Shown: positions 31,886 through 51,935 of the stretch, piece after piece
Layout: each line of letters begins with the position of its first letter
Numbering within the stretch: position 1 is the first letter of the stretch
NCBI GenBank assembly: GCA_964514055.1
Contig: CAZEPB010000002.1
Coordinates: 40,797-104,796, forward strand
DNA length: 64,000 nt
Source of the DNA: an uncultured Candidatus Bathyarchaeia archaeon
GTDB lineage: Archaea; Thermoproteota; Bathyarchaeia; Bathyarchaeales; Bathycorpusculaceae
Direction of reading: 5' to 3'
The notes under the pieces: generated by a model
What the model was told of the DNA's origin: nothing
The model's database searches: none
What the model saw: the letters and a program-made list of their open reading frames with translations, nothing else
Translations under genes and position numbers: made by a program

Positions 31886-33655
31886 TCAGCTCTTCCATCT
31901 TTCCAAGGCGAATTTTATAAGCTTCTCTTCTCGAGCCAATATATCTTTCTGCCCCCATTGCTCAAGACTAGATAGTTCTTTTTGGACTCGAAGAATTGAA
32001 TTGGAGTAATATGGTCTTTTCTTTTCAAAAGACTTATTTCCCCATCTCCGGTTCCAAGGGGCAGAAGCAAGGGTAAGGTTTCCTATTTTATGTTTATGCT
32101 CTTCATGTATCTGCTCTAATTCAGATGGAACTTCGTCTGGATTGTCTGCCCATATGTGCTCGATCTCAAAATCATCCGTAAGAATGGTCTCTAATTCAAA
32201 ATCAATAGGTTCGTCAGCTTCTTTTCTCAAAAACTTTTCATATTCAAAAAGCAAATATTTCAAATCACGTCTGGCAATTCTTTTATAAAACTGTGCAAAT
32301 CTCAAATCATTTTGGAAAGATTGATCATCCTCATAGTAGAAGACCGTATCTTTGAGATTGTTCAATATTTTCCCGAAATTCAGCTTAGTGTTGTGGACTT
32401 TGTATGCAAGTCTACAAACTGATGTTTCACCCGTATCTGCTCTTCTACGACCAACCACATAAACCCTTAATATGAAGAGTTCTATTAGTTTCAGAATTTC
32501 CTTAATCTTTTCCTTTTCATTCTTAAATCTCATCCAAACCGCAATTAATAGAGGGAAAAAATTGGCGACTCTCTCAAGAATAAAGAGTTTATTCAACAAA
32601 TTACCAATTGCATCGCTTTTTTTCAAAGAAACTAATTCGTACGCGGCAAAGAAGGCTTTCTCCAAATCCTCGGTATACTTCATTACATAAGCTAAGCAGT
32701 CGTCCTTTTTTGTCCGATAAAGTTCTCTGGTTACCCGTTTTAAGTAATCAAGATAATTGTAGGAAGTATCCCTATCTCCTTCGGCATTTGGTTCAAAAAC
32801 AATAAAATGATACCTTTGAATAGCTTCTTCATTAAGAAAATCCGCTTTGCTTATAGTCTTGATTTTTTCAACATATCTATATATGTTTGCAAATCTTTCG
32901 TCTATTTTGCGTAGAAGCACTTCGGGTACTTCAGCTTCAGACAGATAAACCATGTGCATCATGAAGCTCTTTGTTTTCTCTAACCTACTCAAAGGTTTAC
33001 CTCTGTCATTCACTGTCTCAAAGATCAGCACAGCGTCGGAATCGTTCTTAACAGGATATCGGATTATGTCTAAATTATCTACTTTCCGTTTGAACTGAGT
33101 GAGAAAATTCTTGAAGTCGATACCTTGCCTTTTAATTTCACCATATTTATCTCTAAAATAGATTTTAGCAATTTTGAGCCTTCGTTGTGATGGAGTGAGT
33201 GTCTCATCAGGATAGTTTTGGTCATCTATGATTACTCTTCTAAAGAACTCTGCGTCGTCTCCCAGTAATTCTAGTTTATATATGTCCTTATATTTGAGAT
33301 AGCTCTTTTCCAAATCCTCTAATTCATTCTTTGATTCAGTGTCGGTGCATACATCCTTGAACTGCACAATCATTTCCTTAAGGAGAATTAGGATGGTTGT
33401 TATTCTCTGCTGTCCATCTATTATATCGTAAACATCAAATGTTCTTAGGCCAGATTGTTTGATTCCAGTCTTTTTTAGCAAGATTGTTCCAAAATAGTGT
33501 TTCTTGTTTGAATCCAAGTATATGAGGTCATTCCAAAGGTCCTCTAATTGCCTTTCTTCCCATGAGTAGTTGCGTTGATAAATTGGGATCTGGAAAACTC
33601 GTTCGCCAACGAGTAGTTCCTTAAATGGAGCTAATCCTCGTTCCAAAAACGTCAC
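31886..33655 (-). CDS. DUF262/DUF1524 protein (GmrSD-like type IV restriction family)
   Basis: 589 aa. N-terminal IPIYQRNYSWEE and IIDGQQRITT (the ParB-like DUF262). C-terminal FEIEHIWA ... HKIGNLTL (DUF1524 His-Me finger). Confidence 0.8.
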   Translation of the reverse strand: MTFLERGLAPFKELLVGERVFQIPIYQRNYSWEERQLEDLWNDLIYLDSNKKHYFGTILLKKTGIKQSGLRTFDVYDIIDGQQRITTILILLKEMIVQFKDVCTDTESKNELEDLEKSYLKYKDIYKLELLGDDAEFFRRVIIDDQNYPDETLTPSQRRLKIAKIYFRDKYGEIKRQGIDFKNFLTQFKRKVDNLDIIRYPVKNDSDAVLIFETVNDRGKPLSRLEKTKSFMMHMVYLSEAEVPEVLLRKIDERFANIYRYVEKIKTISKADFLNEEAIQRYHFIVFEPNAEGDRDTSYNYLDYLKRVTRELYRTKKDDCLAYVMKYTEDLEKAFFAAYELVSLKKSDAIGNLLNKLFILERVANFFPLLIAVWMRFKNEKEKIKEILKLIELFILRVYVVGRRRADTGETSVCRLAYKVHNTKLNFGKILNNLKDTVFYYEDDQSFQNDLRFAQFYKRIARRDLKYLLFEYEKFLRKEADEPIDFELETILTDDFEIEHIWADNPDEVPSELEQIHEEHKHKIGNLTLASAPWNRRWGNKSFEKKRPYYSNSILRVQKELSSLEQWGQKDILAREEKLIKFALERWKS

Positions 33656-33786
33656 CTTATTTGCGTTCTTGACTTTATGTTAACTGTGGGTTTGTATTTA
33701 TTATTCTTTCCAAGCTAGTATTTTTGGGGATTATGTTTTAATCCTATCAACTGCTTTGCGACTTGATAGCGCGGACCTAATCAGGA

Positions 33787-35142
33787 CTATTTTAAAATGT
33801 AGTTTTTACCGCGTCTAATTTTTTGAATGTTGCGACAAGTCTTTCCGAATAACTGTGGGTTTTCTGTGTGTATGGGAAAGACCTTCTTTGGGTTGACTTT
33901 CTTAATTCTTTCTACTATCTCTTCTCGGTTCATGTGACCAGAAGCGTGAAGCTGGTGGAAATTAATACCGAAATGATTTAGCCAGTTATGCATTACTTCG
34001 TCTTCTATGTCTTCTTCACTGAACGGTTCGCTCATGCTATGAATAAAATGACTGTATGCGTCAGGTTTAATGTCTATCAATTCTGCAAACTGGTAGAAGT
34101 TCAAGTCCATCACCATCTCGCCTTGTTTTTCGTGTATGTTTTCGGATGTTACTTTCTTTTCTAAAAATGGGCGTTCCCAAGTGTAGTAGTCCTTTTCAAC
34201 GTGTTCTCCAGATTTCTTTCGTTTATAGTAGACCCGGATGGTTTCGTCTTTGGCGGGGTCAGGCAGGTCAAGGCGCGGGTCATCAACAAGTTTACCTAGA
34301 AGATAGGCGCTTTTTGTCGATATGATGAATTTTCGGTTATTTTCTTTCGCGACGGTGTAGAGGCTTCGGAACCTGTCCATATCTCTACTGTAGTGGGTCA
34401 CAAACACGATTTTGTCAGTATTAGCAATGATGTCGTTGCTTCCTTGCTTAACCTGCTGCTCAGAGTGATTCTTTCGTTTTTCAGTGGATGCCATGCGGGT
34501 TCCTTCACAAATCATAGCAACTGGTTCAGATTCACATGCTTTTTCGATAAACTCTTCGGTCATTTCGCTTCTCGGTCCATGAACTCTCATGTCTCCAGTG
34601 TAAACCACAGTCCCTTCTGAGGTGTGAATCAAATAACCATAAGCTGCTGGGATAGAGTGGTCAACGTGTACAGGCTCAACTGTTAAGTCCCCGATGGAGA
34701 TTGTGTCTCCTGTTCTGAAGGTTTTGTAGTTGTGTTCGCAGTAGTTGCAGTAACTGCTGGTTTCTTCTTGGGCTTCAACGAAGAGTTTGGTTCCTTCTCC
34801 GAGATAAACTGGAATTTCTGGGTCGAGGAACTTTATGTGTTCGATGTGGTCGAAGTGCGCATGAGACAAGAAAACAGCATCGATACTTGGTTTAGTGTAT
34901 GGCAAATTTGTTGGCTCAAGATTCTCTTTGCTGTATACTCCCTTCAGTTTGGGCAGCAGACCAAACTCGAAGTAGTCTTTTAATCCTGTGATTTTTCTTG
35001 CTGAAAGCCATCCAGTGAAGTAGTCAGAGCCGAAGGTGAAGGACTGCCCGAAATCTAGGAATACTCTGGTTTTTTTGTCTTCAAGGAGAATTTTGTTGCC
35101 GCCTATTTCGTTGACTCCGCCATAAAAGGTAAGCTTAGCCAT
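33787..35142 (-). CDS. MBL-fold / beta-CASP RNase J-like hydrolase
   Basis: Start moved to the ATG at 35142 (MAKLTFYGGVNEIGGNKILLED..). LSHAHFDHIEH metallo-beta-lactamase motif. The size and N-terminus resemble archaeal RNase J. Confidence 0.65.
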   Translation of the reverse strand: MAKLTFYGGVNEIGGNKILLEDKKTRVFLDFGQSFTFGSDYFTGWLSARKITGLKDYFEFGLLPKLKGVYSKENLEPTNLPYTKPSIDAVFLSHAHFDHIEHIKFLDPEIPVYLGEGTKLFVEAQEETSSYCNYCEHNYKTFRTGDTISIGDLTVEPVHVDHSIPAAYGYLIHTSEGTVVYTGDMRVHGPRSEMTEEFIEKACESEPVAMICEGTRMASTEKRKNHSEQQVKQGSNDIIANTDKIVFVTHYSRDMDRFRSLYTVAKENNRKFIISTKSAYLLGKLVDDPRLDLPDPAKDETIRVYYKRKKSGEHVEKDYYTWERPFLEKKVTSENIHEKQGEMVMDLNFYQFAELIDIKPDAYSHFIHSMSEPFSEEDIEDEVMHNWLNHFGINFHQLHASGHMNREEIVERIKKVNPKKVFPIHTENPQLFGKTCRNIQKIRRGKNYILK

Positions 35143-35314
35143 ACGCAAACATTTCCACATAAGGAATAGAGGGATATGATAATTGAATTTTATGTACCTG
35201 AAATAAGTGTGATGATTTTTGAAACTTGTACAATCAGTTTAAAATGGCGATGTCACCCGCACATTCTCCCCTTTTCTTTCAGAAAACTAAAACACCAAAT
35301 ATAATTTGGGCTTA

Positions 35315-36646
35315 TCAGATTTTTAAGACTAATTCTAGCCGAGTTTCTATAAAATAGGCAATTATAGCTGCTATTAGTCCTATTCCAAGAGAGATAAGCC
35401 CGCCCAGTATTAAATTCCCCTCCATAAAGAATATCGTGCCAATAGGCAAACCGAATAAAATCCAACCTAAAAAAAATGCAATGATAGCCATTTCACCTGC
35501 AAGCTTTTTCTTGCGCATTTCTTTAATTTCTAGTTGCTTTTCTTCAAATTCTAGTTGCTCCAATCTTGCCTGTCTCCTGCGTTCCAGTTGCTCTTTCTCA
35601 GATTGAAGTCTTTTTTTCTCGTCCTCAAGCTTCTGCTGCTCTCTTTCCGCTTTTGCTCTATCAAAGTATTCTTTTCGCATTTTCTTCTCGGCTACTGTAG
35701 GTCTTGGAATAAGTTCAAATTGGCTAAGAGCAAGAAACCCCAATTTTTCCACCAGTCCCACATGTTTTTCATTTTCAGAGTGAGATTTTATGTTCCAAGG
35801 GTCTTCCTTACCAAGCTGTTTTACTGCAATCAAAGTGTATCGAGCAACTTCGAGGCTCATTCTGTAGGCAATATTCAAGTCAAGTATAGGATTGCTCCAA
35901 GACGAAGGTCTATTAGTTAGAATGAACTGAATTAGGGCAGCTTGGCACCCTTCTATACCTGGCTTAAGATATTCTTCTTCGATAAGCGCGTCTACTCTTT
36001 CTTCGCGTTTTCGACTATCAGCCTCGAACTTTAACATGGTCAAGGAAGTAGATATACCATCCAGTTTTTTCCAATATGCATAGGAAAAATCATAAACTGA
36101 TTGTATTCCGTTGTTTTTTATCCTAATTAATAAATTGTAAAGTTTAGTATACTCATCAATTGCCTTGATTGGCAAGTCTGATTGCTTCAAATTTTCTATT
36201 AAATGTAAATCATCTAGCAAAGGTGACTGCGCAATCGCTATTTCCCATCTTGTATGTGTATCTGCTGTTCTAGGGCGAAGAGTCCATCTGTCTTGAAGGT
36301 AATGAAGTCCTATTCCCAGTTCAGAGTAGCATTCATCGTCACCTGCTAGAAACATGTTTCTTGAATTGGCGATTCTTTTCAGAATCTCGTTGTCTTTTCT
36401 TGTGTGATGCGGAAAATCTCCCCACGAGTCTGGAGTAGTTGAGCCTATCTCCAACAATTTTGTTTCTTTTTCTTTTAGCTTCAGTTCTTTTCCAATTTGC
36501 TTAGCTATTGCTATATGAGTCTTCTGAAGCAATATAGGCCACAATAACAAGTTACAGGTAATAAGCTTAAATTTTTTTAGGATTTTGACATTAATTGGAT
36601 GAATCGAAAACGGATTTGAATATGATGCTAGCGCGCTAAACAACAT
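35315..36646 (-). CDS. membrane-anchored coiled-coil protein; N-terminal region weakly Zn-dependent PLC/nuclease-P1-like
   Basis: 443-aa ORF with an uncertain true start. THIAIAKQIG .. TPDSWGDFPHH .. GLHYLQDRW form His/Asp clusters. Then come a long charged coiled coil (EREQQKLEDEKKRLQSEKEQLERRRQ..) and two C-terminal TM helices. Confidence 0.45.
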   Translation of the reverse strand: MLFSALASYSNPFSIHPINVKILKKFKLITCNLLLWPILLQKTHIAIAKQIGKELKLKEKETKLLEIGSTTPDSWGDFPHHTRKDNEILKRIANSRNMFLAGDDECYSELGIGLHYLQDRWTLRPRTADTHTRWEIAIAQSPLLDDLHLIENLKQSDLPIKAIDEYTKLYNLLIRIKNNGIQSVYDFSYAYWKKLDGISTSLTMLKFEADSRKREERVDALIEEEYLKPGIEGCQAALIQFILTNRPSSWSNPILDLNIAYRMSLEVARYTLIAVKQLGKEDPWNIKSHSENEKHVGLVEKLGFLALSQFELIPRPTVAEKKMRKEYFDRAKAEREQQKLEDEKKRLQSEKEQLERRRQARLEQLEFEEKQLEIKEMRKKKLAGEMAIIAFFLGWILFGLPIGTIFFMEGNLILGGLISLGIGLIAAIIAYFIETRLELVLKI

Positions 36647-36914: not shown

Positions 36915-38024
36915 TTAAATTTTCTTACAGGAAGAACATATGCCTTTCAAGGAAGAGTCTATATTTGATTTTTCTTTGGATCCCTCAATTACGGTTTTGA
37001 AAATATGCACATCGTGGATTGTAGACCAAAGGTAACTTTTGTTAAAATTATACATCAGTCCACGTGCTCCTTCATATGCACAATTTAAGGCTGCCATACG
37101 TTGACCAAACTTCAAAACCGACTCAACTTCTTCCATTGATGCCTCTTGGAAGCTCTCAATCCCAGAGCGACCAAGAAAGTGAATAATGCCCGCACTGCAC
37201 CAATCACCAGCGCCTGCAGTATCGATAATAACAGGCGCGTCAATTGATTCAATCGTCTTCCAATCGTTATTTTTGTCCTTTCGATTATTCAACTTATACC
37301 TTAGGCCTTTATTCCCTAAGGTTTGTATCTCTAATAAAACGTCTCTCTCGAATGGTATTTCGCATATTTGTTGCGCTGAATATTTTACTATATGGGCGAC
37401 ATCAAAAAACTCACGGAATAATTTATTCCTATATATCCTATGCGGTTCGAATACTATTAAAGCTCCACGTTGTTTCTGCAATTTTGCAAGGGTTAAAGCC
37501 GATTTTGAAACTCGGTCGACATAGAAAACTTGTACGTCCGGCATTTTTTTGGAAATTTCAAAAATCAGACGTAGAGGGACGGGCCTATTTCTTGGCAAAG
37601 CTGAGCCACAATAGGGGCATTTGAACTCAAAAACATGGGTATTCTTATTTTCTTCTTGAATTCTCTCAACTACTATAGGTGTTTGCTTTGTTTCGTCGCT
37701 ATATATGAAATCTGTTTTGACTCCCCATTCTCTAATATCTTTTAGAATAATCTTTGATGCAAGGTCCTTTCCTATACTTGCAACTGGATACGAAGACCAG
37801 CCTAGATAGGCAAGTATAGTCAAAACATTGCCACAAGAGCCGCCAATCCCAAAACTTGGGCAACTTTGCTTTTTTCCATTAATGACTATATCCAACACTA
37901 TGAGTCCGGTTCCCATGGAAACGGGTCTGGGCGTTTTTATCTCAAATAATTTCTCATCAATCATAACACTCACCCGCAATCCACAAGCTAAAGAATTCTG
38001 TTCTGAATAAATCCTTTTCAACAT
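36915..38024 (-). CDS. PfkB-family carbohydrate/nucleoside kinase with CxxC insert (operon gene 5)
   Basis: GIGGSCGNV (GG motif) and DTAGAGDWCSAGI (PfkB signature 2). There are extra CPYCGS and C-terminal CSSCKK pairs. The ATG at 37964 is the likelier start (8-nt overlap with the upstream gene). Confidence 0.75.
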   Translation of the reverse strand: MLKRIYSEQNSLACGLRVSVMIDEKLFEIKTPRPVSMGTGLIVLDIVINGKKQSCPSFGIGGSCGNVLTILAYLGWSSYPVASIGKDLASKIILKDIREWGVKTDFIYSDETKQTPIVVERIQEENKNTHVFEFKCPYCGSALPRNRPVPLRLIFEISKKMPDVQVFYVDRVSKSALTLAKLQKQRGALIVFEPHRIYRNKLFREFFDVAHIVKYSAQQICEIPFERDVLLEIQTLGNKGLRYKLNNRKDKNNDWKTIESIDAPVIIDTAGAGDWCSAGIIHFLGRSGIESFQEASMEEVESVLKFGQRMAALNCAYEGARGLMYNFNKSYLWSTIHDVHIFKTVIEGSKEKSNIDSSLKGICSSCKKI

Positions 38025-39084
38025 CCGAGGTTATTTTGTACCCCATACTTTCAACGTTTATTATTGCTACACCTCTTTTTTTAAATTCATACGCAGTTAG
38101 CAAAGCTCCAATTGATATAAGCTTACTAGATGATGCTGATAGTACTATTTGGCACTCACCAATAGCTGCAAATGCGTTTTGATAATTGTCTATTGTTCTA
38201 CATAACTGAGCGTAAACTTCAAAAGGGTTCCTTTCATGCCCGTAAAGGACGTTCTTTGGGTCAATTAGTAATCTATCAAATAAGAGTCTACGATACTCCA
38301 AGATTAAATTGTCACCTCTACGCGGGTCTTTGCTCGGCATTGGGATTAGGGGGGTAATCTCATCAGCTTTCACTTTGTCTGCAATTGTAACAAGTTGCTT
38401 CTCTTGATTTTCTCCAATTATTGGAATCCAAATCTTAATTTTGTTGGCATGCGTTACTGATTGAAGTTCACCAGTAAATCCACGAACATAAGAAGCGTCT
38501 TCAGCAATTCCATCCGCACTTATCGCACGATCAATATCTACGTTTTCGCATACGATCACATGTAAATTAATAGGTTTGTTTTCTTTTCTCATTAAATCAA
38601 CGATTGTTAGAACTTTTCCAATTAAAGGAAAGTAAATTCCACGTGGAAGAGCACTTATATCAATTATTATATCAGAATAACCTTTAAGCTCGTCAGAATC
38701 TGAAATAACACTAAAAGCTTCGCTTGAGCCAATTCGTCTACTTCCATCCTCTGATATCATTCTAACTCTCTTATTGATTCTTATACTTCCTTCTGGTATT
38801 AGACTTTTTAATTTGTCTTCGTTTTTCTCGACCAAATCGTGGTAGTTTAATGAAGGAGAATTTGGTCCCTCATCAAGTTCTATAGTTAAATAATCCCGAC
38901 GACCTTTGCCTGCTGCCGACAAAATTTTCTCGTACCCTAGACATGACCGCGAATCAAAGCCTAATCCAGAGACGTAAAGGATATCTCTAACCTTTTGGCT
39001 CAAGTACTCTCTCCAAAATAATTGAAACTGTTTCCCTTGTACCATGAAATAATTCTTCCATCGTAATTTCATGCCAAAACTCAT
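37957..39084 (-). CDS. orphan protein, alpha/beta Rossmann-like by eye (operon gene 4)
   Basis: 375 aa. Its ATG overlaps the upstream stop (ATGA). The alternating beta-alpha pattern (LYVSGLGFDSRS, IIIDISALPRGIYFPLIG, IWIPIIGEN, IVLSASSSKL) matches no motif I can name. Confidence 0.6.
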   Translation of the reverse strand: MSFGMKLRWKNYFMVQGKQFQLFWREYLSQKVRDILYVSGLGFDSRSCLGYEKILSAAGKGRRDYLTIELDEGPNSPSLNYHDLVEKNEDKLKSLIPEGSIRINKRVRMISEDGSRRIGSSEAFSVISDSDELKGYSDIIIDISALPRGIYFPLIGKVLTIVDLMRKENKPINLHVIVCENVDIDRAISADGIAEDASYVRGFTGELQSVTHANKIKIWIPIIGENQEKQLVTIADKVKADEITPLIPMPSKDPRRGDNLILEYRRLLFDRLLIDPKNVLYGHERNPFEVYAQLCRTIDNYQNAFAAIGECQIVLSASSSKLISIGALLTAYEFKKRGVAIINVESMGYKITSDVEKDLFRTEFFSLWIAGECYD

Positions 39085-41063
39085 ATGCTTCCACCCTGAA
39101 AAAGAGTTTTTTCTGGACTTTTAATGAATGATAAAAGGCTAGAGATGCGAGTTTTTCTCCAACCTCCATAGTTTAATGGTAATCCAAAATGTACACACAA
39201 AAGCCTGTTCAAATAGAAGACAGTTAATATCCGCCCTTTTTTTCCCTGCCTATATTCCGCATGTTCTTCAAGAAAATTTTGAGAAACACAAATTTTCAAG
39301 ACTTCTTTTAAAGGTGAGTAGATTGATTTCTCTCCAGAGTTTACCATTCTATTGATTTCGGTTTCCAGAACACCTATACCTGTAACACCCTCGTAGGACG
39401 CAGCTTTTCTGAAAGTCTGCTTTTTGCAAATATCTCGAATAGCCGTCAACAATGAAATAACCTCACCGCTCCTAGACACGGTATTAGGGATAGTGCTCCA
39501 AACTTCTTTTGCCACTCGTCGCAGGATTTCTTCTTGTCGTTTTGCACTTAAAGTATATCTTCTATTTAACCACACAGAGGAAATTGCTTCTTCAAAAAGG
39601 TCTCCAGCCAAATGTATAAACTGTTCTACATTAAAAGAAGCAGCTTGTACCAAACGAGAAAAGCCAAAATAATATGGAATATGAAATTCTTGGGAAAGCA
39701 AGAATTCACTAATTGATTTAATCCCAGCATCTAACTGTACTTCTTCGCTAGGTATGGGTTCGTTGAATAACCTTCTTTGGTATCTACGCTCAACTAGTAT
39801 TTCTAAAGCACGCCAACTCACTGCCTTTTCTTTGCATCCTCCTCTAGTATTTTCAATTTTTTCTATCCAAAGATCAAAGGTTTTGTCCTTCCCTAATTTT
39901 TCTCTTAATCTCTTGGAAATTATTTCAATCGCTTCAGAATATTTCTTTTCTAAAGATCTGCGATCGCTGGTATGGGTTAAGCAAGCCTCAAAAGTGTTGA
40001 ATTGCATACGTTGAGAGTCTTTGGCCAATCTAGTCCGGCGATCCGCGATTTCTCTTAACCATGATTCGAAACGCTTTTTTTTCCCTAAACTCCGCTTTCT
40101 CCAAAAGTTCTCCAGGTTAATAGTTTCACCATATTCTCTGCCGAGTTTAGTACCTGTGGAAAACAACTCTGCTGAGGAAAGCGCCTCCATCCTTTTTGCT
40201 GTCCATATGTTAATTGGTTGCCTACTTTCTGTTAGAACCTTTTCTAGCCTTTTCCTTTGATCTAAACTCAGTTTTTCCAAATCATCAAGCAGTAACAATA
40301 CCTTTTTATCAAATAATTTATTGTTTATGTATATTCCATTTGGTTGGAATAAATTCAGGCTAAAAAGTGTGTCATTTCCCTCTATTTTACTCTCTTGCTG
40401 AGGTACGAAACTATCGATAATTTGAAGAATTGACATTTCATTTTCAGTTGCCCAATCATATAGATACTGGCCGTTACAGGGTAATTTTATTTGAGGATGG
40501 ACCGAAGATGGCTTTGGGTTGACAAATTTAAGCCGACTGAGGTCTTCAGGATATGACAGCTCAAATAACTCTGATAGCCCTCTTAGTCCTGCGATGATTA
40601 TTCTGCTATTTAGAAGTGATAAGAAAAACCGAATTTTTTGACCTGTTGTCAAATCAAGATCTTCTAACAAATCATAGTTTTGATTGAAGGATAAGAAAAG
40701 ACCTAGAATATTTGGACCTTCATCTGAAAAGACGTTGAGCATTTTCAGTCTGTTGTATAGCTCCTTATACTCTTCCAAATCCCTTCTTTCATTAAGTAGA
40801 AGTAATAGCCGAGGCTCAAATAATCTGAAAAGAGAAGTTTTTCCCCCTCCTGGAGAACTCGTAAAAGGATGTACAAGAGGTCTGTTAATAATATCATCGG
40901 ATAGAATATCCAGAATTCCTGGACCAAACAGGTTTAAAAAAGTCTCGTCGTACCTTATTCTTTCAGCATCTCTTAGTATGAATGGGTTTCTTGGAGCACT
41001 CATATTAAACACTGTGTCGGTTAACTCTTGGAAAGATCCCCTTGTATTCTCTTTTAGGTTCAA
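39081..41063 (-). CDS. large P-loop NTPase (operon gene 3)
   Basis: Walker A-like SSPGGGKTS and Walker B VLLLLDDLEKL lie about 190 residues apart, followed by a long helical C-terminal half. The alternative ATG at 41003 sits 1 nt after the upstream TAA. Confidence 0.7.
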   Translation of the reverse strand: MNLKENTRGSFQELTDTVFNMSAPRNPFILRDAERIRYDETFLNLFGPGILDILSDDIINRPLVHPFTSSPGGGKTSLFRLFEPRLLLLLNERRDLEEYKELYNRLKMLNVFSDEGPNILGLFLSFNQNYDLLEDLDLTTGQKIRFFLSLLNSRIIIAGLRGLSELFELSYPEDLSRLKFVNPKPSSVHPQIKLPCNGQYLYDWATENEMSILQIIDSFVPQQESKIEGNDTLFSLNLFQPNGIYINNKLFDKKVLLLLDDLEKLSLDQRKRLEKVLTESRQPINIWTAKRMEALSSAELFSTGTKLGREYGETINLENFWRKRSLGKKKRFESWLREIADRRTRLAKDSQRMQFNTFEACLTHTSDRRSLEKKYSEAIEIISKRLREKLGKDKTFDLWIEKIENTRGGCKEKAVSWRALEILVERRYQRRLFNEPIPSEEVQLDAGIKSISEFLLSQEFHIPYYFGFSRLVQAASFNVEQFIHLAGDLFEEAISSVWLNRRYTLSAKRQEEILRRVAKEVWSTIPNTVSRSGEVISLLTAIRDICKKQTFRKAASYEGVTGIGVLETEINRMVNSGEKSIYSPLKEVLKICVSQNFLEEHAEYRQGKKGRILTVFYLNRLLCVHFGLPLNYGGWRKTRISSLLSFIKSPEKTLFQGGSI

Positions 41064-42105
41064 ACCATAGGAGCGGAATTGAGTTATTGGGTGTATTATG
41101 ATTCAAGATCAAAGGTAAAGCACATTCATTAAATCCCAGATACGGCCTGTCGTGTTTACCTTTTTTATAGCTATCAGTGATTATTGATTCGTCAAAATAT
41201 TTTTCAAGTAGTTTAAGAAATTCTTTGTCTCTTTCTCCATTTACTTTTACAGAATCAGGCAACAAACAAACAGATTTGACCTTAAATGGAATTTTACCAA
41301 ACAGCTCAGTTCCAATCTTACGTAAATATGTACACGCTTCTTCTGTTGCTATATAAAGAATCAGATGCACCCTAAGATCGGAGTGATCGAAAAGAGAATA
41401 TGCATCACCATTCTTATTACATGCAATATTAAAAAAATTGGCGAGTTTCCCTTTGAATTCCAAATTTTCTCGTCTAAGATAACTAATGCCACTTGCCGAA
41501 AAATCATCTAAAAGAAACACATTATTGAATGTGAAATTTTTCTTATCCAGCTCAATATTTAATTTATTAAGTCGTTCTTTTAATTTGTCTATCGTTTTCT
41601 GCGCCCGGTCTTTTTGGATTTCATGAGTTCGCAATATCTGTTCGTTACTTAGATTTGGGTTACTTCGTCTGAAAAGACCAATGTGAGCACCGTCACTTAG
41701 ACCCAAAAATATACTACGGTACTCGGCGACTTCGAACTCTTGGCTTTCCAAAATTTTATTGACATGCCATTCAGGGATATCTTGTTCTTTTGAAACATGA
41801 TGTATTAATATTTGCTTAATGCAATCAGGATAAGACATATCTATACAATGTTCCAGTTCATCATCCGAAATATATATGAGGCGATGTTTTATGAATCGAT
41901 ATGCTTCAACCCGTTCTTCCTTATTCTTAAATTGAGAAAGCCACATTGCTAAACTTTCAAAAAAATGCATTCCTTGAAAAAAAGGTTGATATTCATCATA
42001 CTTAAATGCAGCTAAAAACAATAAATCAGGTCGCTCTTTTGCTATGTCTTCTGGGTTCCACTGCATCGTTTTCGCTAGAATCTGTCCAACTAAATTTTCG
42101 TTCAC
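41005..42105 (-). CDS. phosphoribosyltransferase-like protein (operon gene 2)
   Basis: 366 aa with a GTG start 2 nt after the upstream stop. NNVFLLDDFSASGISY fits the type I PRTase PRPP-loop pattern (4 hydrophobic residues, DD, x-x, S/T-G-x-S/T). The N-terminal half is helical and unassigned. Confidence 0.55.
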   Translation of the reverse strand: MNENLVGQILAKTMQWNPEDIAKERPDLLFLAAFKYDEYQPFFQGMHFFESLAMWLSQFKNKEERVEAYRFIKHRLIYISDDELEHCIDMSYPDCIKQILIHHVSKEQDIPEWHVNKILESQEFEVAEYRSIFLGLSDGAHIGLFRRSNPNLSNEQILRTHEIQKDRAQKTIDKLKERLNKLNIELDKKNFTFNNVFLLDDFSASGISYLRRENLEFKGKLANFFNIACNKNGDAYSLFDHSDLRVHLILYIATEEACTYLRKIGTELFGKIPFKVKSVCLLPDSVKVNGERDKEFLKLLEKYFDESIITDSYKKGKHDRPYLGFNECALPLILNHNTPNNSIPLLWFEPKREYKGIFPRVNRHSV

Positions 42106-42107
42106 CT

Positions 42108-44060
42108 CTAACCCCCTCTAAGAATGTTCATATCAAATTTTGCTTCCCCATTTCTACTATGAATTGCCTTCAAATAATCTTCAGCAGCTTGTGTACATCT
42201 ATGTCCAGCTGGAGCCAAGTTCCAACAAGTGTTGGGATTAGGAGAAACAGTATCTACACTTAGTGAATTCTGAACACTTAGGAGGTAAAAATCGTTTCCA
42301 GGCCACTTGCCTTTATCCCCTATACACAATATTGAATTAGTTTTTTGATTGTTGCGATTTTGAATCTCTATTAAAACATTTAATTTACTGACTTTTGGAG
42401 CTAGAACGTCAATAGAATGATCAGATTCAAGAATCTGAATTGTTCTTAAATCATCCTTATTTTCCACTATATTTCGCAAGTACTGACTTAGCTCCTTGAT
42501 AGAATGATTTCTCTTCGGGGTGAAAGTAATTTGATTTGGACGACATTCTGACTTTGAAATAAGATTGAAGTATCCATTATTACTTAAATGATCCATCAAC
42601 AATTTAAGCTTTGGTTCTATTGCTTCGCTCTTGTTAGGTCTTGTCAAATCATTTAATAGTCCTATGTCTGAACCATTGTAATAGCCAATTAGCATTTTTG
42701 ACCAATATCTCTTAGGTATCATTTTTTGTAGATCGTTCCTGACTGACTTCCCACGACCGGTAGCTATGCCAATAGAAATATCGCCGTCTAATAACCTAGT
42801 CAAATGCCCTCCAATTGTTCCTGATATTCCCTCATATCTCTTTTTTGTGTTGCAAAGCGTGCCATCATAATCGAAGACTACCGAATGGTAAGTGTTTGTT
42901 TCCAGATTTTTTACAAATTTGTTACATGCCTTAATCCAGAAATCAATAATTTCATTGTCCATAAAAAAGTTAGGTGGAATTTTTCTTTTTATGGCTCTAA
43001 TTAGAAAAGGATTACTTCGTTTTACAAGGGGGATTCGATTTCTGAATAAATCAGAAGGAACGGTAAGGTGGTACAGTTTCCTACCAAAGGTAGGGACACG
43101 TGGTTGCCCAGGATCAACATCATGATATTCACCAAAAACACCCACTAAATACATAGCTTTAACAAGTAGGGACAGAGCGCCAACAGACCCATTAAGTTTG
43201 GTCGTTAACCTAATGATTGGGACGTCCTTAGGTATTAATTCCAAGTGTTTCTCTGCTAGCCTTTTATCTTCAGGTGAGATTAATGCAAGTACACCCGATT
43301 CGCTAGGCCACTTCGCTAACCAGTAATGTCTTCCATGTGCAAAATTACGATAATCGGCTAGCCGCACATTGCATAATGCGGACTCTGTGAATTTAGACTC
43401 TAAATCAAAAGCAGCAGGTTTTCCCCATTTACCGTGCAACACAATTAAGGTTCTTTTTCGCACTAATGGATTTAATTGTGTCTTCAGACATGAATACAGC
43501 TCTTGAGAACTATATTCGATTAAAGTATTAAACGAGATAGGAAGCCGATCACCCGGGAAAAATTCTTCTTGTGTCCGGAGTAAAACAAGGAAAAACGTAA
43601 GAAGGGAATTAGTTGCAAGAAAACCGTCTTTCTTAGATGGAGGTTCGAATTCACATAAATGTGCAAATCTAAATTTATTCACAATTTTTCCGATAGCGCT
43701 TCCTTTTTTCGTACACAAAACTAATAATTGTCGTGCTTCATTTCTTATTGCATTCTTTACAGCCAGCAATACGTCAGAGTTTCCTCCTTTTGCAGTGAAG
43801 AGTATTACAGAAGTATTTTGGATGTTGATGTCAGCCGTAATGAACTCTAACGGCGTTAAATATTGTGCATGCATTCCTAGCTCTTGGTGAAGCAGAGACG
43901 TAAATATCGCTGCAGTAAAGGAACCGCCCGAGCCTACAGCAATCAATGGAAGAGTACCAGACAAACTACGAAAGGCAGTTAAGCTGCTAATATCAGTAGT
44001 TAGACCCCAGTTATATGTCAAAGGCATGCGTTCAATTTCCTTTAGGTAATTCTTGCCCAA
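42108..44060 (-). CDS. double-SIS phosphosugar-binding domain fused to HAD-IIB phosphatase (operon gene 1)
   Basis: 650 aa with a TTG start. LIAVGSGGSFTAA and FLATNSLL (SIS 1), HGKWGKPAAFDLESKFTE..NFAHGRH (SIS 2, GlmS/AgaS-like). Then VVFDYDGTLC, IATGRG and CIGDKGKWPGND (HAD motifs I, II and IV). Confidence 0.75.
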   Translation of the reverse strand: MGKNYLKEIERMPLTYNWGLTTDISSLTAFRSLSGTLPLIAVGSGGSFTAAIFTSLLHQELGMHAQYLTPLEFITADINIQNTSVILFTAKGGNSDVLLAVKNAIRNEARQLLVLCTKKGSAIGKIVNKFRFAHLCEFEPPSKKDGFLATNSLLTFFLVLLRTQEEFFPGDRLPISFNTLIEYSSQELYSCLKTQLNPLVRKRTLIVLHGKWGKPAAFDLESKFTESALCNVRLADYRNFAHGRHYWLAKWPSESGVLALISPEDKRLAEKHLELIPKDVPIIRLTTKLNGSVGALSLLVKAMYLVGVFGEYHDVDPGQPRVPTFGRKLYHLTVPSDLFRNRIPLVKRSNPFLIRAIKRKIPPNFFMDNEIIDFWIKACNKFVKNLETNTYHSVVFDYDGTLCNTKKRYEGISGTIGGHLTRLLDGDISIGIATGRGKSVRNDLQKMIPKRYWSKMLIGYYNGSDIGLLNDLTRPNKSEAIEPKLKLLMDHLSNNGYFNLISKSECRPNQITFTPKRNHSIKELSQYLRNIVENKDDLRTIQILESDHSIDVLAPKVSKLNVLIEIQNRNNQKTNSILCIGDKGKWPGNDFYLLSVQNSLSVDTVSPNPNTCWNLAPAGHRCTQAAEDYLKAIHSRNGEAKFDMNILRGG

Positions 44061-44754: not shown

Positions 44755-45225
44755 TTATTTCAAGTCTTTAATTCTTTTTATTGTCTCTTCAAAGTCTAGC
44801 CACTTTGGTATATTGGCTATTTGATTCGTAATTTCTTCAATTTGAATAATTGGCTTTATCTCAGCGTTTAATCTTCTTCGGCGTTCTTCCGCTGTAAGGT
44901 TAAAGAAAACCCATAAACAAGCATTTGAATTATCTGGGCTAACTCTAAATTCGTAGAGTTCAAAACCAAAAGGAATGTTAATGTTGTGCTCTGTAACTGG
45001 AATAGGCTTAGCAATTCCAAGTTCAGCTAATAAGTCTAAACCTGACTTGACTAACTTCTCCCAATTACCCGTTTTCTCGATAATACTTGTCACGTTTCTT
45101 TCATCTTCTTCGGTGATATCGAAATAACCCGTTCGCACTCTGCATCTAACAGTTTCTCCTCTCATCATTTCAAAATCACAAAATTTGTATTTCCCGAAAG
45201 TAAATTCTTGGGGCATAGGAACCAC
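44755..45225 (-). CDS. hypothetical protein, divergent partner of the TIR-like gene
   Basis: 156-aa ORF with clean coding appearance and no nameable motif. It shares a 98-nt AT-rich divergent promoter region with 45324-46175. Confidence 0.5.
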   Translation of the reverse strand: MVPMPQEFTFGKYKFCDFEMMRGETVRCRVRTGYFDITEEDERNVTSIIEKTGNWEKLVKSGLDLLAELGIAKPIPVTEHNINIPFGFELYEFRVSPDNSNACLWVFFNLTAEERRRRLNAEIKPIIQIEEITNQIANIPKWLDFEETIKRIKDLK

Positions 45226-45323
45226 TAAAAGAAGCCTTAGTTATCTAGTTTTATAAATTTATATGTTTAATTAATGAATCGATAAGTTTTTCTTCCCATA
45301 ATACTATTAGCTGTTGACCTGAA

Positions 45324-46175
45324 ATGTCATCAGAAAAGCGATATTACCATGTTCAATTGAAATATACAGAACCCCAAAAAACAGGGATGGGAACACTTAC
45401 TTCTTACCCAAAAACTGAACAAGAGTTTGATTTGTCAGAAGAGGATGCAACTGAATTGGGCGAGCAATATTCTAAAGGATGTATTCTTTTCAAAGGGAAG
45501 TGGATTGAGGTATCAAATATTGAAGAGATTGAAATTCGAGAAACAACAGCGAAATCAAACACGCTATGGGGAAGTTCAGTTTTTCAATCTTCAACGGCAA
45601 ACGTTGTAACAAGACGTTTCATAAAATCACCACCTAGAAAAGGCTCTGCTGCTCCTCAGCCTATTAGTGAATCCGCTAAAATAGTAACACAGGCAAAAAG
45701 TAAAGATGTTTTTATTGTTCACGGCAATGACTATGAACCACTGAAAGAGCTAAAAACGATGCTTTATGATTTAGGTCTAAATCCCATAGTTTTACATGAA
45801 CAACCAAGTGGAAGTAAGACGGTGGTTGAGAAGCTCGAACACTACTCAGATGTTGGTTATGCGTTTGTAATTCTGACTCCTGATGATATGGGTTGTTCAG
45901 GTAATGAATTAAGAAAAGCCATCATTGCTCAGTATCCTATGGAAAAAATATTGAGCATGTTTAGAAATAGAGCAAGACAGAATGTTGTTCTAGAATTTGG
46001 TTATTTTATCAATAAATTAGGTCGTTCTCGAGTTTGTTGTTTATACAAAGGTGACGTAGAATTACCATCGGATATGCAAGGAATTGTGTATATTCCTTTT
46101 CGCAACTCTGTTGAAGAAGTTCGAGTAAGAATAATGAAAGAACTCAAACAGGCTAAATATGATGTAAGAATCTAA
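45324..46175 (+). CDS. TIR-like nucleotide-binding domain protein (COG4271 / Cap12-PycTIR-type) with unknown N-terminal domain
   Basis: 283 aa. The C-terminal half has VFIVHGNDYEPLKELKTML, FVILTPDDMG and RARQNVVLEFGYFINKLGRSRV, the signature I recall for the bacterial TIR-like family. Confidence 0.7.
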   Translation: MSSEKRYYHVQLKYTEPQKTGMGTLTSYPKTEQEFDLSEEDATELGEQYSKGCILFKGKWIEVSNIEEIEIRETTAKSNTLWGSSVFQSSTANVVTRRFIKSPPRKGSAAPQPISESAKIVTQAKSKDVFIVHGNDYEPLKELKTMLYDLGLNPIVLHEQPSGSKTVVEKLEHYSDVGYAFVILTPDDMGCSGNELRKAIIAQYPMEKILSMFRNRARQNVVLEFGYFINKLGRSRVCCLYKGDVELPSDMQGIVYIPFRNSVEEVRVRIMKELKQAKYDVRI

Positions 46176-46223
46176 GGGTAGGGCAGTTGTCATAATAATG
46201 TGGACTGCAAAAGCTGAAAGGAG

Positions 46224-46484
46224 ATGGTTGTATACTTGATAATGTTTGATAATAGACCTTGGAAGGAATTAAATGATGAGATTGCAAAACTGAGTGAGGA
46301 ATATGCAAGATTAAAGAATAGACCTAAACCATTTGAAACTGAAACTGAGAAAGAAGTGAGAGAAGACCAGTTTAGAAAAGACAGACATGAAAAATGGGCA
46401 GAGTTTGATTCTTTTAAAGCTGATTTTGAAAAAAAGAGAGAATACATTCTGAAATTGAAGCAAGAAATCGAAAACAAAAGCTAA
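46224..46484 (+). CDS. small charged coiled-coil protein
   Basis: 86 aa (or from MFDNRPW at 46242). Highly charged helical sequence lying 48 nt after the TIR-like gene on the same strand. Confidence 0.4.
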   Translation: MVVYLIMFDNRPWKELNDEIAKLSEEYARLKNRPKPFETETEKEVREDQFRKDRHEKWAEFDSFKADFEKKREYILKLKQEIENKS

Positions 46485-46506
46485 AATCTTCTGATTCTGA
46501 AGATTT
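46484..46506 (+). terminator. 8-bp stem hairpin at the end of the TIR-like/coiled-coil unit
   Basis: aaatcttc-tgattct-gaagattt starts at the last base of the stop codon. Confidence 0.4.
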
Positions 46507-46640
46507 ATTAACATATCAAAGCGCTAAATAGCACGTGCCAAGTATTCCGCCTATCCATGAAATATCAAAAAGAGCGAATAAGTGAAAACCACTGCAACGA
46601 TGATTTGGTAAAGGTTTCTATTGAATAGGACATTTGTCAA

Positions 46641-47600
46641 TCACCTATTTGGAATATTAAAGTTGATAGTTTTTTCAAACTCGCTGTTAATTTCGCCAGA
46701 CGATGGCGCTGAATATATCATTGTAATTCTAATATCAGAATGTCTCATCACCTCTTTTAAGACTTGAAGGTCGCCTTTGTTATTTCTCCATAAGTGTCCG
46801 AAGACATGACGCATTTTGTGAAGAGTGACTTTATTTCCTTCGCGGTCTTCAATCACCGTCTTTTCACAATAGCGATAAAACCATTTAAGCAAAGTTTTGT
46901 AGGAAACGGGGATAACACGAGAGTTGGGTTCACGCTTACTCACTGAATGCAACAAATAAATGCTAAAATCGTTAAGCGGAATCAATACAGCTGGGTCGCC
47001 AACTTTGGTTGATTTTGGAAAATACCTTTCGCCCTTGTGACGTTGCAGATTGATTTTTTTATTTTCTAAGTCCAAGTCTTCAAAATATAAACCCAATACC
47101 TCGCCTGGACGCAAGCCATCAAAAGCCATTAGGCTCCAGCCAAGGGCAAACTCTTGTGAATAAGGATTTTTCTTATCATTTTGCGTGACTTCAATTAGCT
47201 TCAATATTTGTTCAATTGGAATATCAACCCTAAACTTGTTTTGAGGCTGAACCTCTTTCATGTTATCTCTGAGCCATTTAGAATCATCTCGCCTTCCGAG
47301 GCTGTTGAATAATGCCCTCATAAATCGCTTGTATGCAACTGCGCTGTTCATTGATTTGTAGTAAGAGGTTTTAAGGTCATATCTTCCCATTTTTTGGATA
47401 AAGGCTTTAGCGTGAAGGCAGTTCATCTCGCTGAGTGAAATCCACTGTTCATCAAGAAACGCCTCCAAATTTCTACAGTAGCTTTTATAGGTGCTTGAGG
47501 TTCGCCTTTCACTTTTCTGGGAGAATGTGATGAGTTCGGGAATCGTAAGCTCCCGTGATATAGGTCTGCCACCAACTGAAACGGTTTTTATCATTTTCAC
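46641..47600 (-). CDS. tyrosine recombinase / integrase
   Basis: 319 aa. GLRPGEV (Arg I), LHKMRHVFG (H-x-x-R) and MRHSDIRITMIYS (catalytic Tyr region). Confidence 0.85.
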   Translation of the reverse strand: MKMIKTVSVGGRPISRELTIPELITFSQKSERRTSSTYKSYCRNLEAFLDEQWISLSEMNCLHAKAFIQKMGRYDLKTSYYKSMNSAVAYKRFMRALFNSLGRRDDSKWLRDNMKEVQPQNKFRVDIPIEQILKLIEVTQNDKKNPYSQEFALGWSLMAFDGLRPGEVLGLYFEDLDLENKKINLQRHKGERYFPKSTKVGDPAVLIPLNDFSIYLLHSVSKREPNSRVIPVSYKTLLKWFYRYCEKTVIEDREGNKVTLHKMRHVFGHLWRNNKGDLQVLKEVMRHSDIRITMIYSAPSSGEINSEFEKTINFNIPNR

Positions 47601-47608
47601 ATCCGTGA

Positions 47609-47902
47609 CTAGGGGTTTTTAGCACGACTCCCCTCGCCTTTTTTTGTCAAGTTTCCCTCTTGCTTCCGTGTCCAGGGTTTGCGCCAAGGTCGTAATTCAA
47701 TGCCTTTTCTACGGGCTTGATGAGCAATACTGTCAACTTTTCCCTTTGGTATTCCGTACTTGCGGAGAAAATATTTGTAGTTGAGAAACGGCTTTTCCTT
47801 CAACTCGCCAATCACTAACTGGCTGATGTTGACTTCTTCCCTTCTGAAGCGCTCCCCATTGATGATGATATAGTCTTTTTCCTCAGAGTTTTCTTGAATC
47901 AA
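47609..47902 (-). CDS. small basic protein (possible excisionase/HTH)
   Basis: 97 aa. Its start overlaps the upstream gene stop by 4 nt, and it lies directly upstream of the integrase. Confidence 0.45.
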   Translation of the reverse strand: MIQENSEEKDYIIINGERFRREEVNISQLVIGELKEKPFLNYKYFLRKYGIPKGKVDSIAHQARRKGIELRPWRKPWTRKQEGNLTKKGEGSRAKNP

Positions 47903-48237
47903 TTTTCGATCCCTCCGTTTCTGTCAACCTCTTTTAAAAATTCTAAGCCTTTCGACGTTAGGCGATAGTAGTCACGGCTGTACAGCCTTCGGTTGCCAGT
48001 TGATATTACGATTAGACCTCTGCCCGACGTTGAACATGTTGGTAAAAGGACTTTTTCAACCAAACCTAACTCAATAAGCTCATCCAGAAAAATAGTCACA
48101 TCTTTAGCGTAAAGACGGTTTTTCATAGTGATTTTTGATTTTATCAATGGCTTCTGAAGAATTGACATGCAAATACGATAGGCTTTTTCAAAGCTTATCT
48201 TGACTTGAGAAAAATTAATCAGCTCTATTCGCGCCAA
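47899..48237 (-). CDS. winged-helix DNA-binding protein
   Basis: 112 aa. LYAKDVTIFLDELIELGLVEK ... YRLTSKGLEFLKE is a wHTH-like pattern. Confidence 0.5.
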   Translation of the reverse strand: MARIELINFSQVKISFEKAYRICMSILQKPLIKSKITMKNRLYAKDVTIFLDELIELGLVEKVLLPTCSTSGRGLIVISTGNRRLYSRDYYRLTSKGLEFLKEVDRNGGIEN

Positions 48238-48282
48238 CTTGTTTTGCCTCCCTATTTCGTTCTTTCGTGTAGATGCAATCCA

Positions 48283-48456
48283 TTAGGCAACACCAATTAT
48301 GACTGTGTCACTTTTAGTCCAGTAGAGGTTGCCCTTAGGAGTTCTGAAAACTTCAACGTCTTTTTTGTCTAACAGCTTTTGGAACTCAGCACTTGACATC
48401 TCAATGATGCAAATGTCTTCAGGGATTGAGATTTTATCAACATCTATGACCTGCAT
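48283..48456 (-). CDS. 57-aa hypothetical protein (not in ORF track)
   Basis: MQVIDVDKISIPEDICIIEMSSAEFQKLLDKKDVEVFRTPKGNLYWTKSDTVIIGVA. Its ATG overlaps the TAA of the upstream RHH ORF (TAATG). Confidence 0.4.
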   Translation of the reverse strand: MQVIDVDKISIPEDICIIEMSSAEFQKLLDKKDVEVFRTPKGNLYWTKSDTVIIGVA

Positions 48457-48626
48457 TACTCACATTCGCCGTCCTTCAGAAAGCCCATATCTTCAAGCCT
48501 ACGTCTAACAGCGTCGCGGATGAAGTCTGATTTATTCGCAAAGGTTGTTTCGGGAAGGGCATCAACCAACACTTTGTCAAGTTTCTTGGGAACTTGGATG
48601 CCCCAAACAGTTGTTAGTTGATCCAT
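48456..48626 (-). CDS. 56-aa ribbon-helix-helix (CopG-like) protein (not in ORF track)
   Basis: MDQLTTVWGIQVPKKLDKVLVDALPETTFANKSDFIRDAVRRRLEDMGFLKDGECE. The beta-strand and helix pattern with KSDFIRDAVRRRL is typical of RHH. A ggaggt lies 7 nt upstream. Confidence 0.55.
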   Translation of the reverse strand: MDQLTTVWGIQVPKKLDKVLVDALPETTFANKSDFIRDAVRRRLEDMGFLKDGECE

Positions 48627-49303: not shown

Positions 49304-49309
49304 AATAGA

Positions 49310-50773: not shown

Positions 50774-50774
50774 T

Positions 50775-50889: not shown

Positions 50890-50904
50890 GTTGGGTGATA
50901 ATAA

Positions 50905-51441: not shown

Positions 51442-51446
51442 CTTGA

Positions 51447-51899: not shown

Positions 51900-51935
51900 T
51901 CTTTTAAACGACTTTGTTAATTTAGCTTCAGCGAG

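Follow-up and report, generated by a model that had tools for sequence, protein, structure and literature searches.

A five-gene cassette with a PRTase-CE protein, an ORC-CDC6-like ATPase and a CARF6-family protein in a Bathyarchaeia genome: a candidate mobile defence module

What kind of system joins a phosphoribosyltransferase (PRTase)-like protein to a large, atypical P-loop NTPase in an uncultured Candidatus Bathyarchaeia archaeon? The two genes lie at 39081-42105 of the stretch analyzed here (the window, 64,000 nt of contig CAZEPB010000002.1). A first-pass annotation, made from the sequence alone, described them as a translationally coupled pair followed by an orphan protein, a pairing that it could not name. 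We re-checked this observation by translating the motifs and the open reading frame (ORF) coordinates in the 64,000-nt window. The ORFs are placed as described, but the pair is the middle of an operon of five translationally coupled genes that occupies 36915-44060 (7.1 kb) of the minus strand. Both members of the pair belong to families held in Pfam (PF24390 and PF24389), and the supposed orphan is a CARF6-family protein, which the annotation had missed. In the direction of transcription, the operon comprises:

42108-44060, minus strand: gene 1, 650 residues, double-SIS and HAD-IIB protein
41005-42105, minus strand: gene 2, 366 residues, PRTase-CE protein, predicted effector
39081-41003, minus strand: gene 3, 640 residues from its ATG, ORC-CDC6-like AAA+ ATPase, predicted sensor/switch
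37957-39084, minus strand: gene 4, 375 residues, CARF6-family protein, predicted ligand sensor
36915-37964, minus strand: gene 5, 349 residues from the ATG at 37964, PfkB-family sugar/nucleoside kinase

The core families are already known from Pfam and PADLOC, and the window copy is a further member of a well-populated, uncharacterised family. On balance, we lean toward the view that the cassette is a mobile defence module, in which the AAA+ and CARF6 proteins detect an invader and activate the PRTase, which then drains phosphoribosyl pyrophosphate (PRPP).

Conservation and mobility of the five-gene operon

The stop codon of gene 1 (TAG) is followed after 2 nt by the GTG start of the PRTase gene. 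The PRTase ends ...S-V-TAA (41007-41005), and a single base (41004) separates this stop from the ATG of the ATPase (41003-41001), the 1-nt distance that had been reported. A TTG at 41063 would give an in-frame extension upstream; homologues begin at the ATG (consensus MxxxRNPF). The ATPase stop and the CARF6 start overlap as ATGA, and genes 4 and 5 overlap by 8 nt, with PfkB homologues aligning from the ATG at 37964. To place these junctions in a wider frame, we compared 80 fetched loci and three more obtained by exact look-up. Coupling of the PRTase and ATPase genes is kept across them: the two genes overlap by 4 nt in 48 of the 60 loci that could be mapped reliably, and the distance between them lies between -10 and +12 nt in all 78 loci (78/78). 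The CARF6 gene directly follows the ATPase gene on its 3′ side, with 76 of 79 junctions at 30 nt or less wherever the two were both matched in a cassette locus. A scan for sigma-70 promoters and terminators in the window gave background levels, the sigma-70 model being inapplicable to the host, an archaeon with two TBP genes in whose genome no McrA was found.

The order of all five genes is identical wherever the contig reaches, in at least 17 bacterial and archaeal phyla; the exceptions are one rearranged locus (L013) and three partial matches (L017, L034 and L083). Archaeal hosts include Nitrososphaerota, Bathyarchaeota, Methanosarcina, Methanoregula and Thermoplasmata, and bacterial hosts include Acidobacteriota, Myxococcota, Planctomycetota, Bacteroidota, Chloroflexota, Cyanobacteriota and Bacillota. 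Among named isolates, homologues occur in Myxococcus faecalis, Flagellimonas aurea and Mucilaginibacter pedocola. At least 160 cluster representatives are close to the ATPase, each of ~640 residues, and a profile search extends this to 984 clusters at 50% identity, among which 478 score below 1e-30. The two SIS/HAD-IIB and PfkB enzymes are specific to this subfamily and flank a triad of effector, ATPase and CARF6 protein.

This wide distribution is also sparse. In a scan of 185,579 species genomes, 183 relatives of the ATPase were found (~0.1% of species, in both domains), and the gene was absent from all 60 relatives of the host that were screened (0/60: 10 of the same genus, 26 of the same family and 24 of the same order). 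The NTPase is thus no member of a housekeeping family; such membership is what the first-pass annotation had named as an outcome that would tell against its proposal. Phyla and both domains are interleaved in the ATPase tree, with 28 label changes where 16 would be the minimum, and the window copy clusters there with Nitrososphaerota/Bathyarchaeota rows and with a single row from Acidobacteriota. The GC content of the 32-60 kb stretch that holds the cassette is 35-41%, compared with ~46% outside it, and searches for att-like direct repeats, tRNA and Rfam RNA as boundaries of this island found none, the Rfam search covering the window. Elsewhere the flanks are variable, with integrases, transposases, ArdC, bacteriophage exclusion (BREX), defence island system associated with restriction-modification (DISARM), type I restriction-modification, PD-T4-6 and one cyclase of a cyclic-oligonucleotide-based antiphage signalling system (CBASS); no sixth conserved gene was found in the cassette flanks. 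These data identify the cassette as an accessory, horizontally mobile unit.

Families and folds of the encoded proteins

Gene 2 matches the Pfam family PRTase-CE (PF24390) at 71.6 bits (1.2e-19; residues 54-360), with 71.5 bits in the scan of its own genome, against a cut-off of 27 for this family and likewise for PF24389. It also matches the retron profile PRTase_III-A of PADLOC at 1.3e-12. By these profiles, it belongs to the effector clade of type III-A retrons (PRTase-CE). The motif from which the PRTase assignment started is the putative PRPP-binding loop, given here in two extents:

41479-41535, minus strand: PRPP-binding loop of the PRTase, translation FTFNNVFLLDDFSASGISY
41488-41535, minus strand: the same loop, shorter extent, translation FTFNNVFLLDDFSASG

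The loop VFLLDDFSASG consists of four hydrophobic residues, an acidic pair and a small-residue/Gly turn. D200, D201 and F202 do not vary among 33 PRTase homologues, of which at least 90% keep S205 and G206. The same homologues conserve G324-x14-P339-N340-N341, with G324, P339 and N340 invariant. A Gx14PNN signature is given as typical of retron PRTase effectors (PMC12746101); the Gx14PNNxP form of the clade is found in gene 2, but with the trailing Pro one position later (PNNSIP).

Structural comparison of AlphaFold models, made with Foldseek and VIA-align, is consistent with this assignment. In a wide VIA-align search, the PRTase model (pLDDT 90.9) matched uracil phosphoribosyltransferase (1vst) at Z 9.5 (rmsd 4.4, 161 aligned residues), followed by 1bd3 (Z 9.2), the orotate phosphoribosyltransferase domain of 3qw4 (Z 8.9) and hypoxanthine-guanine phosphoribosyltransferase (2xbu, Z 8.5), and all 12 of the 12 top rows were PRTases or PRTase-like proteins. 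The model therefore has the predicted Rossmann-like core of type I PRTases. Foldseek alone gave weak matches (best E 7.5e-3), and a profile search of the PDB with the PRTase alignment returned no match. The resemblance to a PRPP loop, on which the first reading had staked its proposal, is thus borne out by profile and by fold comparison. Its description of a helical N-terminal half needs qualification: most of that half lies inside the family domain, with the Pfam match spanning 54-360 and the alignments to uracil and hypoxanthine-guanine phosphoribosyltransferases starting at residues 34-80.

Gene 3 matches Pfam ORC-CDC6-like (PF24389) at 75.4 bits (5.4e-21) over residues 72-631 of the 660-residue ORF, and NCBI and UniRef label its homologues 'ORC-CDC6 family AAA ATPase'. 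Its nucleotide-binding motifs are as follows:

40833-40859, minus strand: Walker A, SSPGGGKTS, ATPase residues 49-57, with Ser in place of the first Gly
40281-40301, minus strand: Walker B, VLLLLDD, ATPase residues 235-241

Both motifs are present and conserved: S49, G52, G54, K55 and D240 are invariant among 35 ATPase homologues, and D241 is conserved in at least 90%. From K55 to D240 the spacing is 185 residues, and this width had been taken as a sign of an ABC/SMC-like NTPase. Profile and fold place the protein instead in the ORC/Cdc6-STAND branch of AAA+. Foldseek matched the model (pLDDT 86.5) to Drosophila ORC (7jk6_A, E 4.7e-4) and Cdc6 (1fnn, E 1.1e-3), and VIA-align matched it to PAB2304 (2qen, Z 12.0, 315 aligned residues), Cdc6/Orc1 (2qby_B, Z 11.3), MuB (Z 10.9), BrxC (Z 10.3) and plant nucleotide-binding leucine-rich repeat proteins (NLRs; Z 9.9), with TnsC also among the nearest. 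The wide spacing arises because a mostly helical insert of ~125 residues lies between β2 (99-105) and β3 (the Walker B strand, 234-240) of the model. The region of ~380 residues after the core, described earlier as helical, is so in part; it ends in an α/β, winged-helix-like module at ~540-628. The DSSP pattern H-H-E-E at 547-598 suggests a C-terminal winged helix in the model, and the alignments to 2qen and 2fna reach residue ~608.

We rejected the ABC/SMC class for this protein. Its sole support is a local match of the family profile to the Walker B/D-loop of an ABCB1-type ABC transporter (E 7e-4, positions 187-281, window 40170-40450), which probably reflects convergence of the LLLDD-x-x-x-L-D stretch, and the protein folds as AAA+. 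The listed structural matches, nearly all of AAA+/STAND type, include no ABC or SMC chain. Complex prediction for ATPase residues 1-630 with the PRTase scored 0.00, under the threshold, a run made without controls that counts neither for nor against binding. No fused, longer forms of the window ATPase (>1120 residues) were found, which is weak evidence.

Gene 4 matches the PADLOC profile PDLC01910 'CARF6' over its full length (1.5e-110; residues 8-375 on profile positions 2-348 of 348), and it has no Pfam match and no recognisable effector domain. G42, F43, R46, D142, S144 and P147 are invariant in the family, and G40, D44 and R148 are conserved in at least 90%. The family has in common with the CARF/SAVED sensors of type III CRISPR and CBASS the strand-end motifs of CARF type, G-x-G-F-D-x-R after the first strand and D-I-S-x-x-P-R; unlike these sensors, it has no fused nuclease. 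A PDB profile search with the CARF6 alignment gave no match, and a feature search of the ESM Atlas returned only unnamed clusters. A comparison of its N-terminal and C-terminal halves with hhalign found no internal repeat, and given this null a tandem-CARF or SAVED-like build is not claimed.

Membership of the CARF superfamily catalogue raises the question of whether the cassette is an arm of a cyclic-oligonucleotide pathway, in which the CARF6 protein would bind cyclic oligoadenylate or another cyclic oligonucleotide made elsewhere by type III CRISPR or CBASS and relay the signal through the ATPase to the PRTase. Relatives of gene 4 do give weak cross-matches to the Csx1, CARF1 and CARF3 profiles (1e-4 to 5.5e-7), and the CBASS cyclase mentioned above is one among 135 flanking ORFs. 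However, no cyclase recurs beside the ~80 cassettes, and none is in the window cassette. Neither Cas10 (TIGR02578, TIGR02577) nor a SMODS cyclase (PF18144) was matched in the host genome, a metagenome-assembled genome (MAG) that is 86.7% complete, so that absence there is not proof. We therefore consider such an arm very improbable; the ligand of CARF6, if any, is probably not a locally made cyclic oligoadenylate, since no Cas10 or CD-NTase was found.

The two outer genes encode sugar-phosphate enzymes. Gene 1 combines an N-terminal GlmS/AgaS-like double-SIS phosphosugar-binding/isomerase module with a C-terminal HAD-IIB (Cof-type) sugar-phosphate phosphatase (Pfam Hydrolase_3, 5e-7; NCBIfam HAD-IIB). 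Its family profile matches the SIS isomerases/deaminases 8eol and 3hba at 1.2e-5 (positions 20-228) and the HAD protein 4qjb at 4e-5. D397, D399 and T401 of HAD motif I are invariant, as are G43, G45 and G46 of the SIS loop GSGGS, in which S44 and S47 are conserved in at least 90%. Gene 5 matches Pfam PfkB at 1.7e-16 and, weakly, the NCBIfam fructokinase, ribokinase and ribose-1-phosphate kinase models. In its GAGD motif (250-254), G251, G253 and D254 are invariant and A250 is conserved in at least 90%; a CPxCG insert and a C-terminal CxxC are conserved family-wide, a family trait that by sequence resembles a Zn-ribbon add-on. The enzymatic motifs are thus conserved throughout the cassette (the PRPP-loop DD, Walker A and B, the HAD DxD and the PfkB GAGD).

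Metabolic families as common as PfkB, HAD, SIS and PRTase could also make up an ordinary carbohydrate or nucleoside salvage operon with a regulatory ATPase. We find this reading scarcely credible for a set whose ATPase is missing from every screened relative of the host and is present in so few species yet in both domains, which lies in an island among mobile elements, and which pairs a PRTase of a retron-effector clade with a CARF6 partner. The NCBIfam scores also fall far under every equivalog cut-off.

An ATPase-CARF6 pair with exchangeable effectors

A scan for PF24389 in 400 genomes of the host phylum yielded six further genomes, with members of other subfamilies. The loci outside the five-gene cassette that we examined, with what they encode, are:

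L096 (genome G247): PRTase-CE of 290 residues upstream, ATPase, CARF6 (1e-151)
L097: HD-CE (PF24391) upstream, ATPase, CARF6 (2.5e-86)
L098: no separate effector, ATPase with an N-terminal extension, CARF6 present
L099 and L100: protein kinase fused N-terminally to the ATPase, CARF6 present
L101 (Pseudomonas wadenswilerensis): PRTase-CE upstream, ATPase, CARF6 present
L102 (Rhizobium leguminosarum): PRTase-CE upstream, ATPase, CARF6 present
L103 (Methanosarcina mazei): PRTase-CE upstream, ATPase, CARF6 present

The triad layout, with the effector before the ATPase or fused to it and CARF6 directly after it, is found in all of them (8/8). The Pfam accessions PF24389, PF24390 and PF24391 are consecutive. 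Fusions of a Ser/Thr kinase, AAA+ and CARF were described by Makarova et al. in 2014 (PMC4012209), and PADLOC holds a single-polypeptide profile, STK-AAA-CARF6 (PDLC01925). These fusions (PADLOC 'CARF6--CARF_STK_AAA') share with the cassette the PF24389 and CARF6 families, their order and an N-terminal or upstream effector; they differ in that the effector is a fused protein kinase and in having neither SIS/HAD nor PfkB. Loci L096, L101, L102 and L103 are closer, with the same three families, order and tight coupling as in the cassette. Their PRTase, however, is compact (290-305 residues), and DNA methyltransferases and dUTPase-like genes replace SIS/HAD and PfkB. Together, these data show that the ATPase and CARF6 form an obligate pair with interchangeable effectors (PRTase, HD hydrolase or protein kinase). 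The upstream or N-terminal enzymatic module is the part that is swapped, as is usual for an effector.

A 797-residue metagenomic protein (P0378), on a 4.1 kb ENA contig, carries PF24390 and PF24389 together. It is preceded by a 185-residue PRTase-CE fragment and followed by a gene of 319 residues. It may be a true fusion, or a frameshifted or duplicated PRTase that was read through and hence a gene-calling artefact.

The three-gene relatives regularly adjoin DNA methyltransferases: an N6 methyltransferase lies within the operon in L101 (3424-8978) and L102 (3533-8822), and a C5 methyltransferase lies beside the archaeal loci L096 (4209-9153), L097 (897-5855) and L103 (160-8022), the last directly after a DISARM set of DrmB, phospholipase D and methyltransferase. 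Genes of dUTPase type also recur near these relatives. Such neighbours hint at a link to DNA modification or to deoxynucleoside triphosphate pools.

The methyltransferases bring in a restriction-modification type of action, in which the ORC/Cdc6-like ATPase would recognise foreign or unmodified DNA and the PRTase would act on nucleic acid or protein and not on the PRPP pool. ORC/Cdc6-type AAA+ proteins bind DNA, and MuB, TnsC and BrxC are among the structures nearest to the ATPase. The five-gene cassette, however, has no methyltransferase, its PRPP loop is of the kind found in type I PRTases that form nucleotides, and we know of no PRTase that modifies DNA. We regard this reading as improbable.

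Returning to the window, the remainder of the low-GC island beyond the operon spans 44755-61138 and includes:

45324-46175: CAP12/Pycsar-type TIR protein (2e-33), with no cyclase nearby
46641-47600 and 59849-61138: two tyrosine recombinases
49310-50773: DUF3987 protein
52234-53817: TPR-HEPN_LA2681 protein
55184-57235: PIN-like protein with transmembrane helices
58069-59847: SIR2_2 protein

Downstream of the operon, at 31886-36646, lie three unrelated defence-like genes: GmrSD, a type IV restriction enzyme (PF03235/PF07510) that also falls within the low-GC stretch; an RNase J-like metallo-β-lactamase (MBL)/β-CASP protein; and a protein resembling Zn-phospholipase C that has a coiled coil and, at its C-terminal end, a transmembrane segment. 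We considered these three as parts of the system and rejected them, as they are absent from all other loci. With the PADLOC matches, the defence genes of the island and the defence and mobile genes in other flanks, the first-pass placement of the pair among conflict systems holds. In three cassettes, L003 (5047-5709), L008 and L025 (from Bacillota and two Armatimonadota MAGs), a sixth gene of ~220 residues stands between SIS/HAD and PRTase; that of L003 gives weak Pfam matches to DCD/dUTPase.

Predicted action of the cassette and its significance

If the cassette is a defence module, the ATPase, with its winged-helix-like end, and CARF6 would act as sensor and switch for invader nucleic acid, a nucleotide-type ligand or both, and ATP-dependent switching would activate the PRTase. 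The PRTase would then use up PRPP and disturb nucleotide synthesis, halting virus replication at a cost to host growth. The likely part of the kinase and the phosphatase/isomerase would be to supply this attack, pull it forward or extend it, perhaps through processing of a phosphoribosyl product or cycling of a pentose phosphate.

That the PRTase would drain PRPP and block nucleotide supply is suggested by analogy with Retron-Eco11 and ShosT. Switching on the PRTase of Retron-Eco11 lowers PRPP by ~50% and leads to abortive infection, the documented outcome for type III-A retrons (PMC12746101). The cassette has in common with these retrons (Mestre 2020, PMC7736814; PMC12746101) the PRTase clade, the acidic pair of the PRPP loop, the Gx14PNN signature and the pairing of the effector with a partner that bears a winged helix, a putative one in the case of the ATPase. 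In contrast, its partner is an AAA+ ATPase with CARF6, two sugar-phosphate enzymes are added, and its PRTase is longer (366 residues, with inserts) and distant in sequence. No reverse transcriptase was found among the operon and island proteins scanned, and the window has no Rfam match that would indicate a multicopy single-stranded DNA or its non-coding RNA.

ShosT, of the ShosTA system, combines a PRTase with a HAD-like pyrophosphatase and perturbs the metabolism of purines (PMC11961720). Together with the Ter-linked sets (PMC7824862), it offers a precedent for a PRTase and a HAD-superfamily hydrolase in a defence context, with toxicity through nucleotide metabolism. The arrangement differs in both cases: in ShosT the pyrophosphatase is fused to the PRTase and the antitoxin binds DNA, whereas the HAD-IIB domain of the cassette is separate from the PRTase and fused to SIS; Ter proteins, which mark the Ter-linked sets, are absent from the cassette. 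For the ATPase, the relevant comparison is with STAND/NLR-like and BrxC-type ATPases, which share the ORC/Cdc6-STAND core and the helical and, putatively, winged-helix modules, and by which an NTP-dependent switch would be expected. Unlike them, it has no repeat-type sensor and carries the large insert between Walker A and B and the obligate CARF6 partner.

Several points weigh against sensing of an invader followed by PRPP depletion. We found neither an experiment with a member of the family nor, in the accessible literature, a description of the PRTase triad or of the five-gene cassette (that literature did not extend to Burroughs & Aravind 2020 or to the CARF census that gave CARF6 its name, Makarova et al. 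2020). The missing match to Cas10 and SMODS counts here as well, and the CARF fold of gene 4 is predicted from the PADLOC profile only. The window PRTase is ~21% identical to the compact PRTase-CE of the three-gene relatives, and its Pfam score is modest, so that its chemistry may differ from that of Retron-Eco11; the acceptor substrate of PRTase effectors is not known even for ShosT (PMC11961720). Finally, SIS/HAD and PfkB are strictly conserved in the cassette yet dispensable in the three-gene relatives. Simple PRPP depletion leaves both unexplained, and they fit a biosynthetic pathway equally well.

Such a pathway is the basis of a further reading, which we hold to be rather unlikely. In it, PfkB, PRTase and SIS/HAD would build a phosphoribosyl- or pentose-derived nucleoside- or nucleotide-like compound, either a messenger read by CARF6 or an antiviral antimetabolite, and the AAA+ protein would gate the pathway. 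Three phosphosugar/nucleotide enzymes, their catalytic motifs intact, strictly accompany the CARF6 gene and are translationally coupled with it; searches of the genome turned up neither Cas10 nor a SMODS cyclase as a source of a classical CARF ligand; and for Ter systems, a nucleoside-like signal has been suggested as the product of PRTase and HAD sets (PMC7824862). The dCTP-deaminase/dUTPase-like gene in three loci would fit as well. On the other hand, the PRTase clade is known as a toxic retron effector, and the AAA+-CARF6 pair occurs with HD-CE, protein kinase or compact PRTase-CE in loci devoid of the kinase and phosphatase enzymes. The pair works elsewhere without SIS/HAD and PfkB, and CARF6 therefore cannot generally depend on a ligand that these make. 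A bolder form, that the five-gene cassette is a cyclase-independent signalling or antimetabolite system whose own enzymes make a PRPP- or pentose-phosphate-derived molecule on infection, with the CARF protein reading or buffering it and the ATPase as gate, seems to us decidedly unlikely.

The five-gene PRTase form is among the most rigidly conserved cassettes common to archaea and bacteria. Its 7.1-kb size and the homologues in named isolates make it directly testable. Provided that it acts in defence, the cassette would couple a CARF-type sensor with a STAND-like switch and no cyclase, and would extend PRTase attack on nucleotide pools past retrons and ShosTA; one would also have to ask what a CARF domain detects where no cyclic oligoadenylate is made. 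Should the cassette's own enzymes instead make a small molecule, this would be the first CARF-type sensor with a non-oligonucleotide ligand, or an antiviral nucleoside analogue made by a new route.

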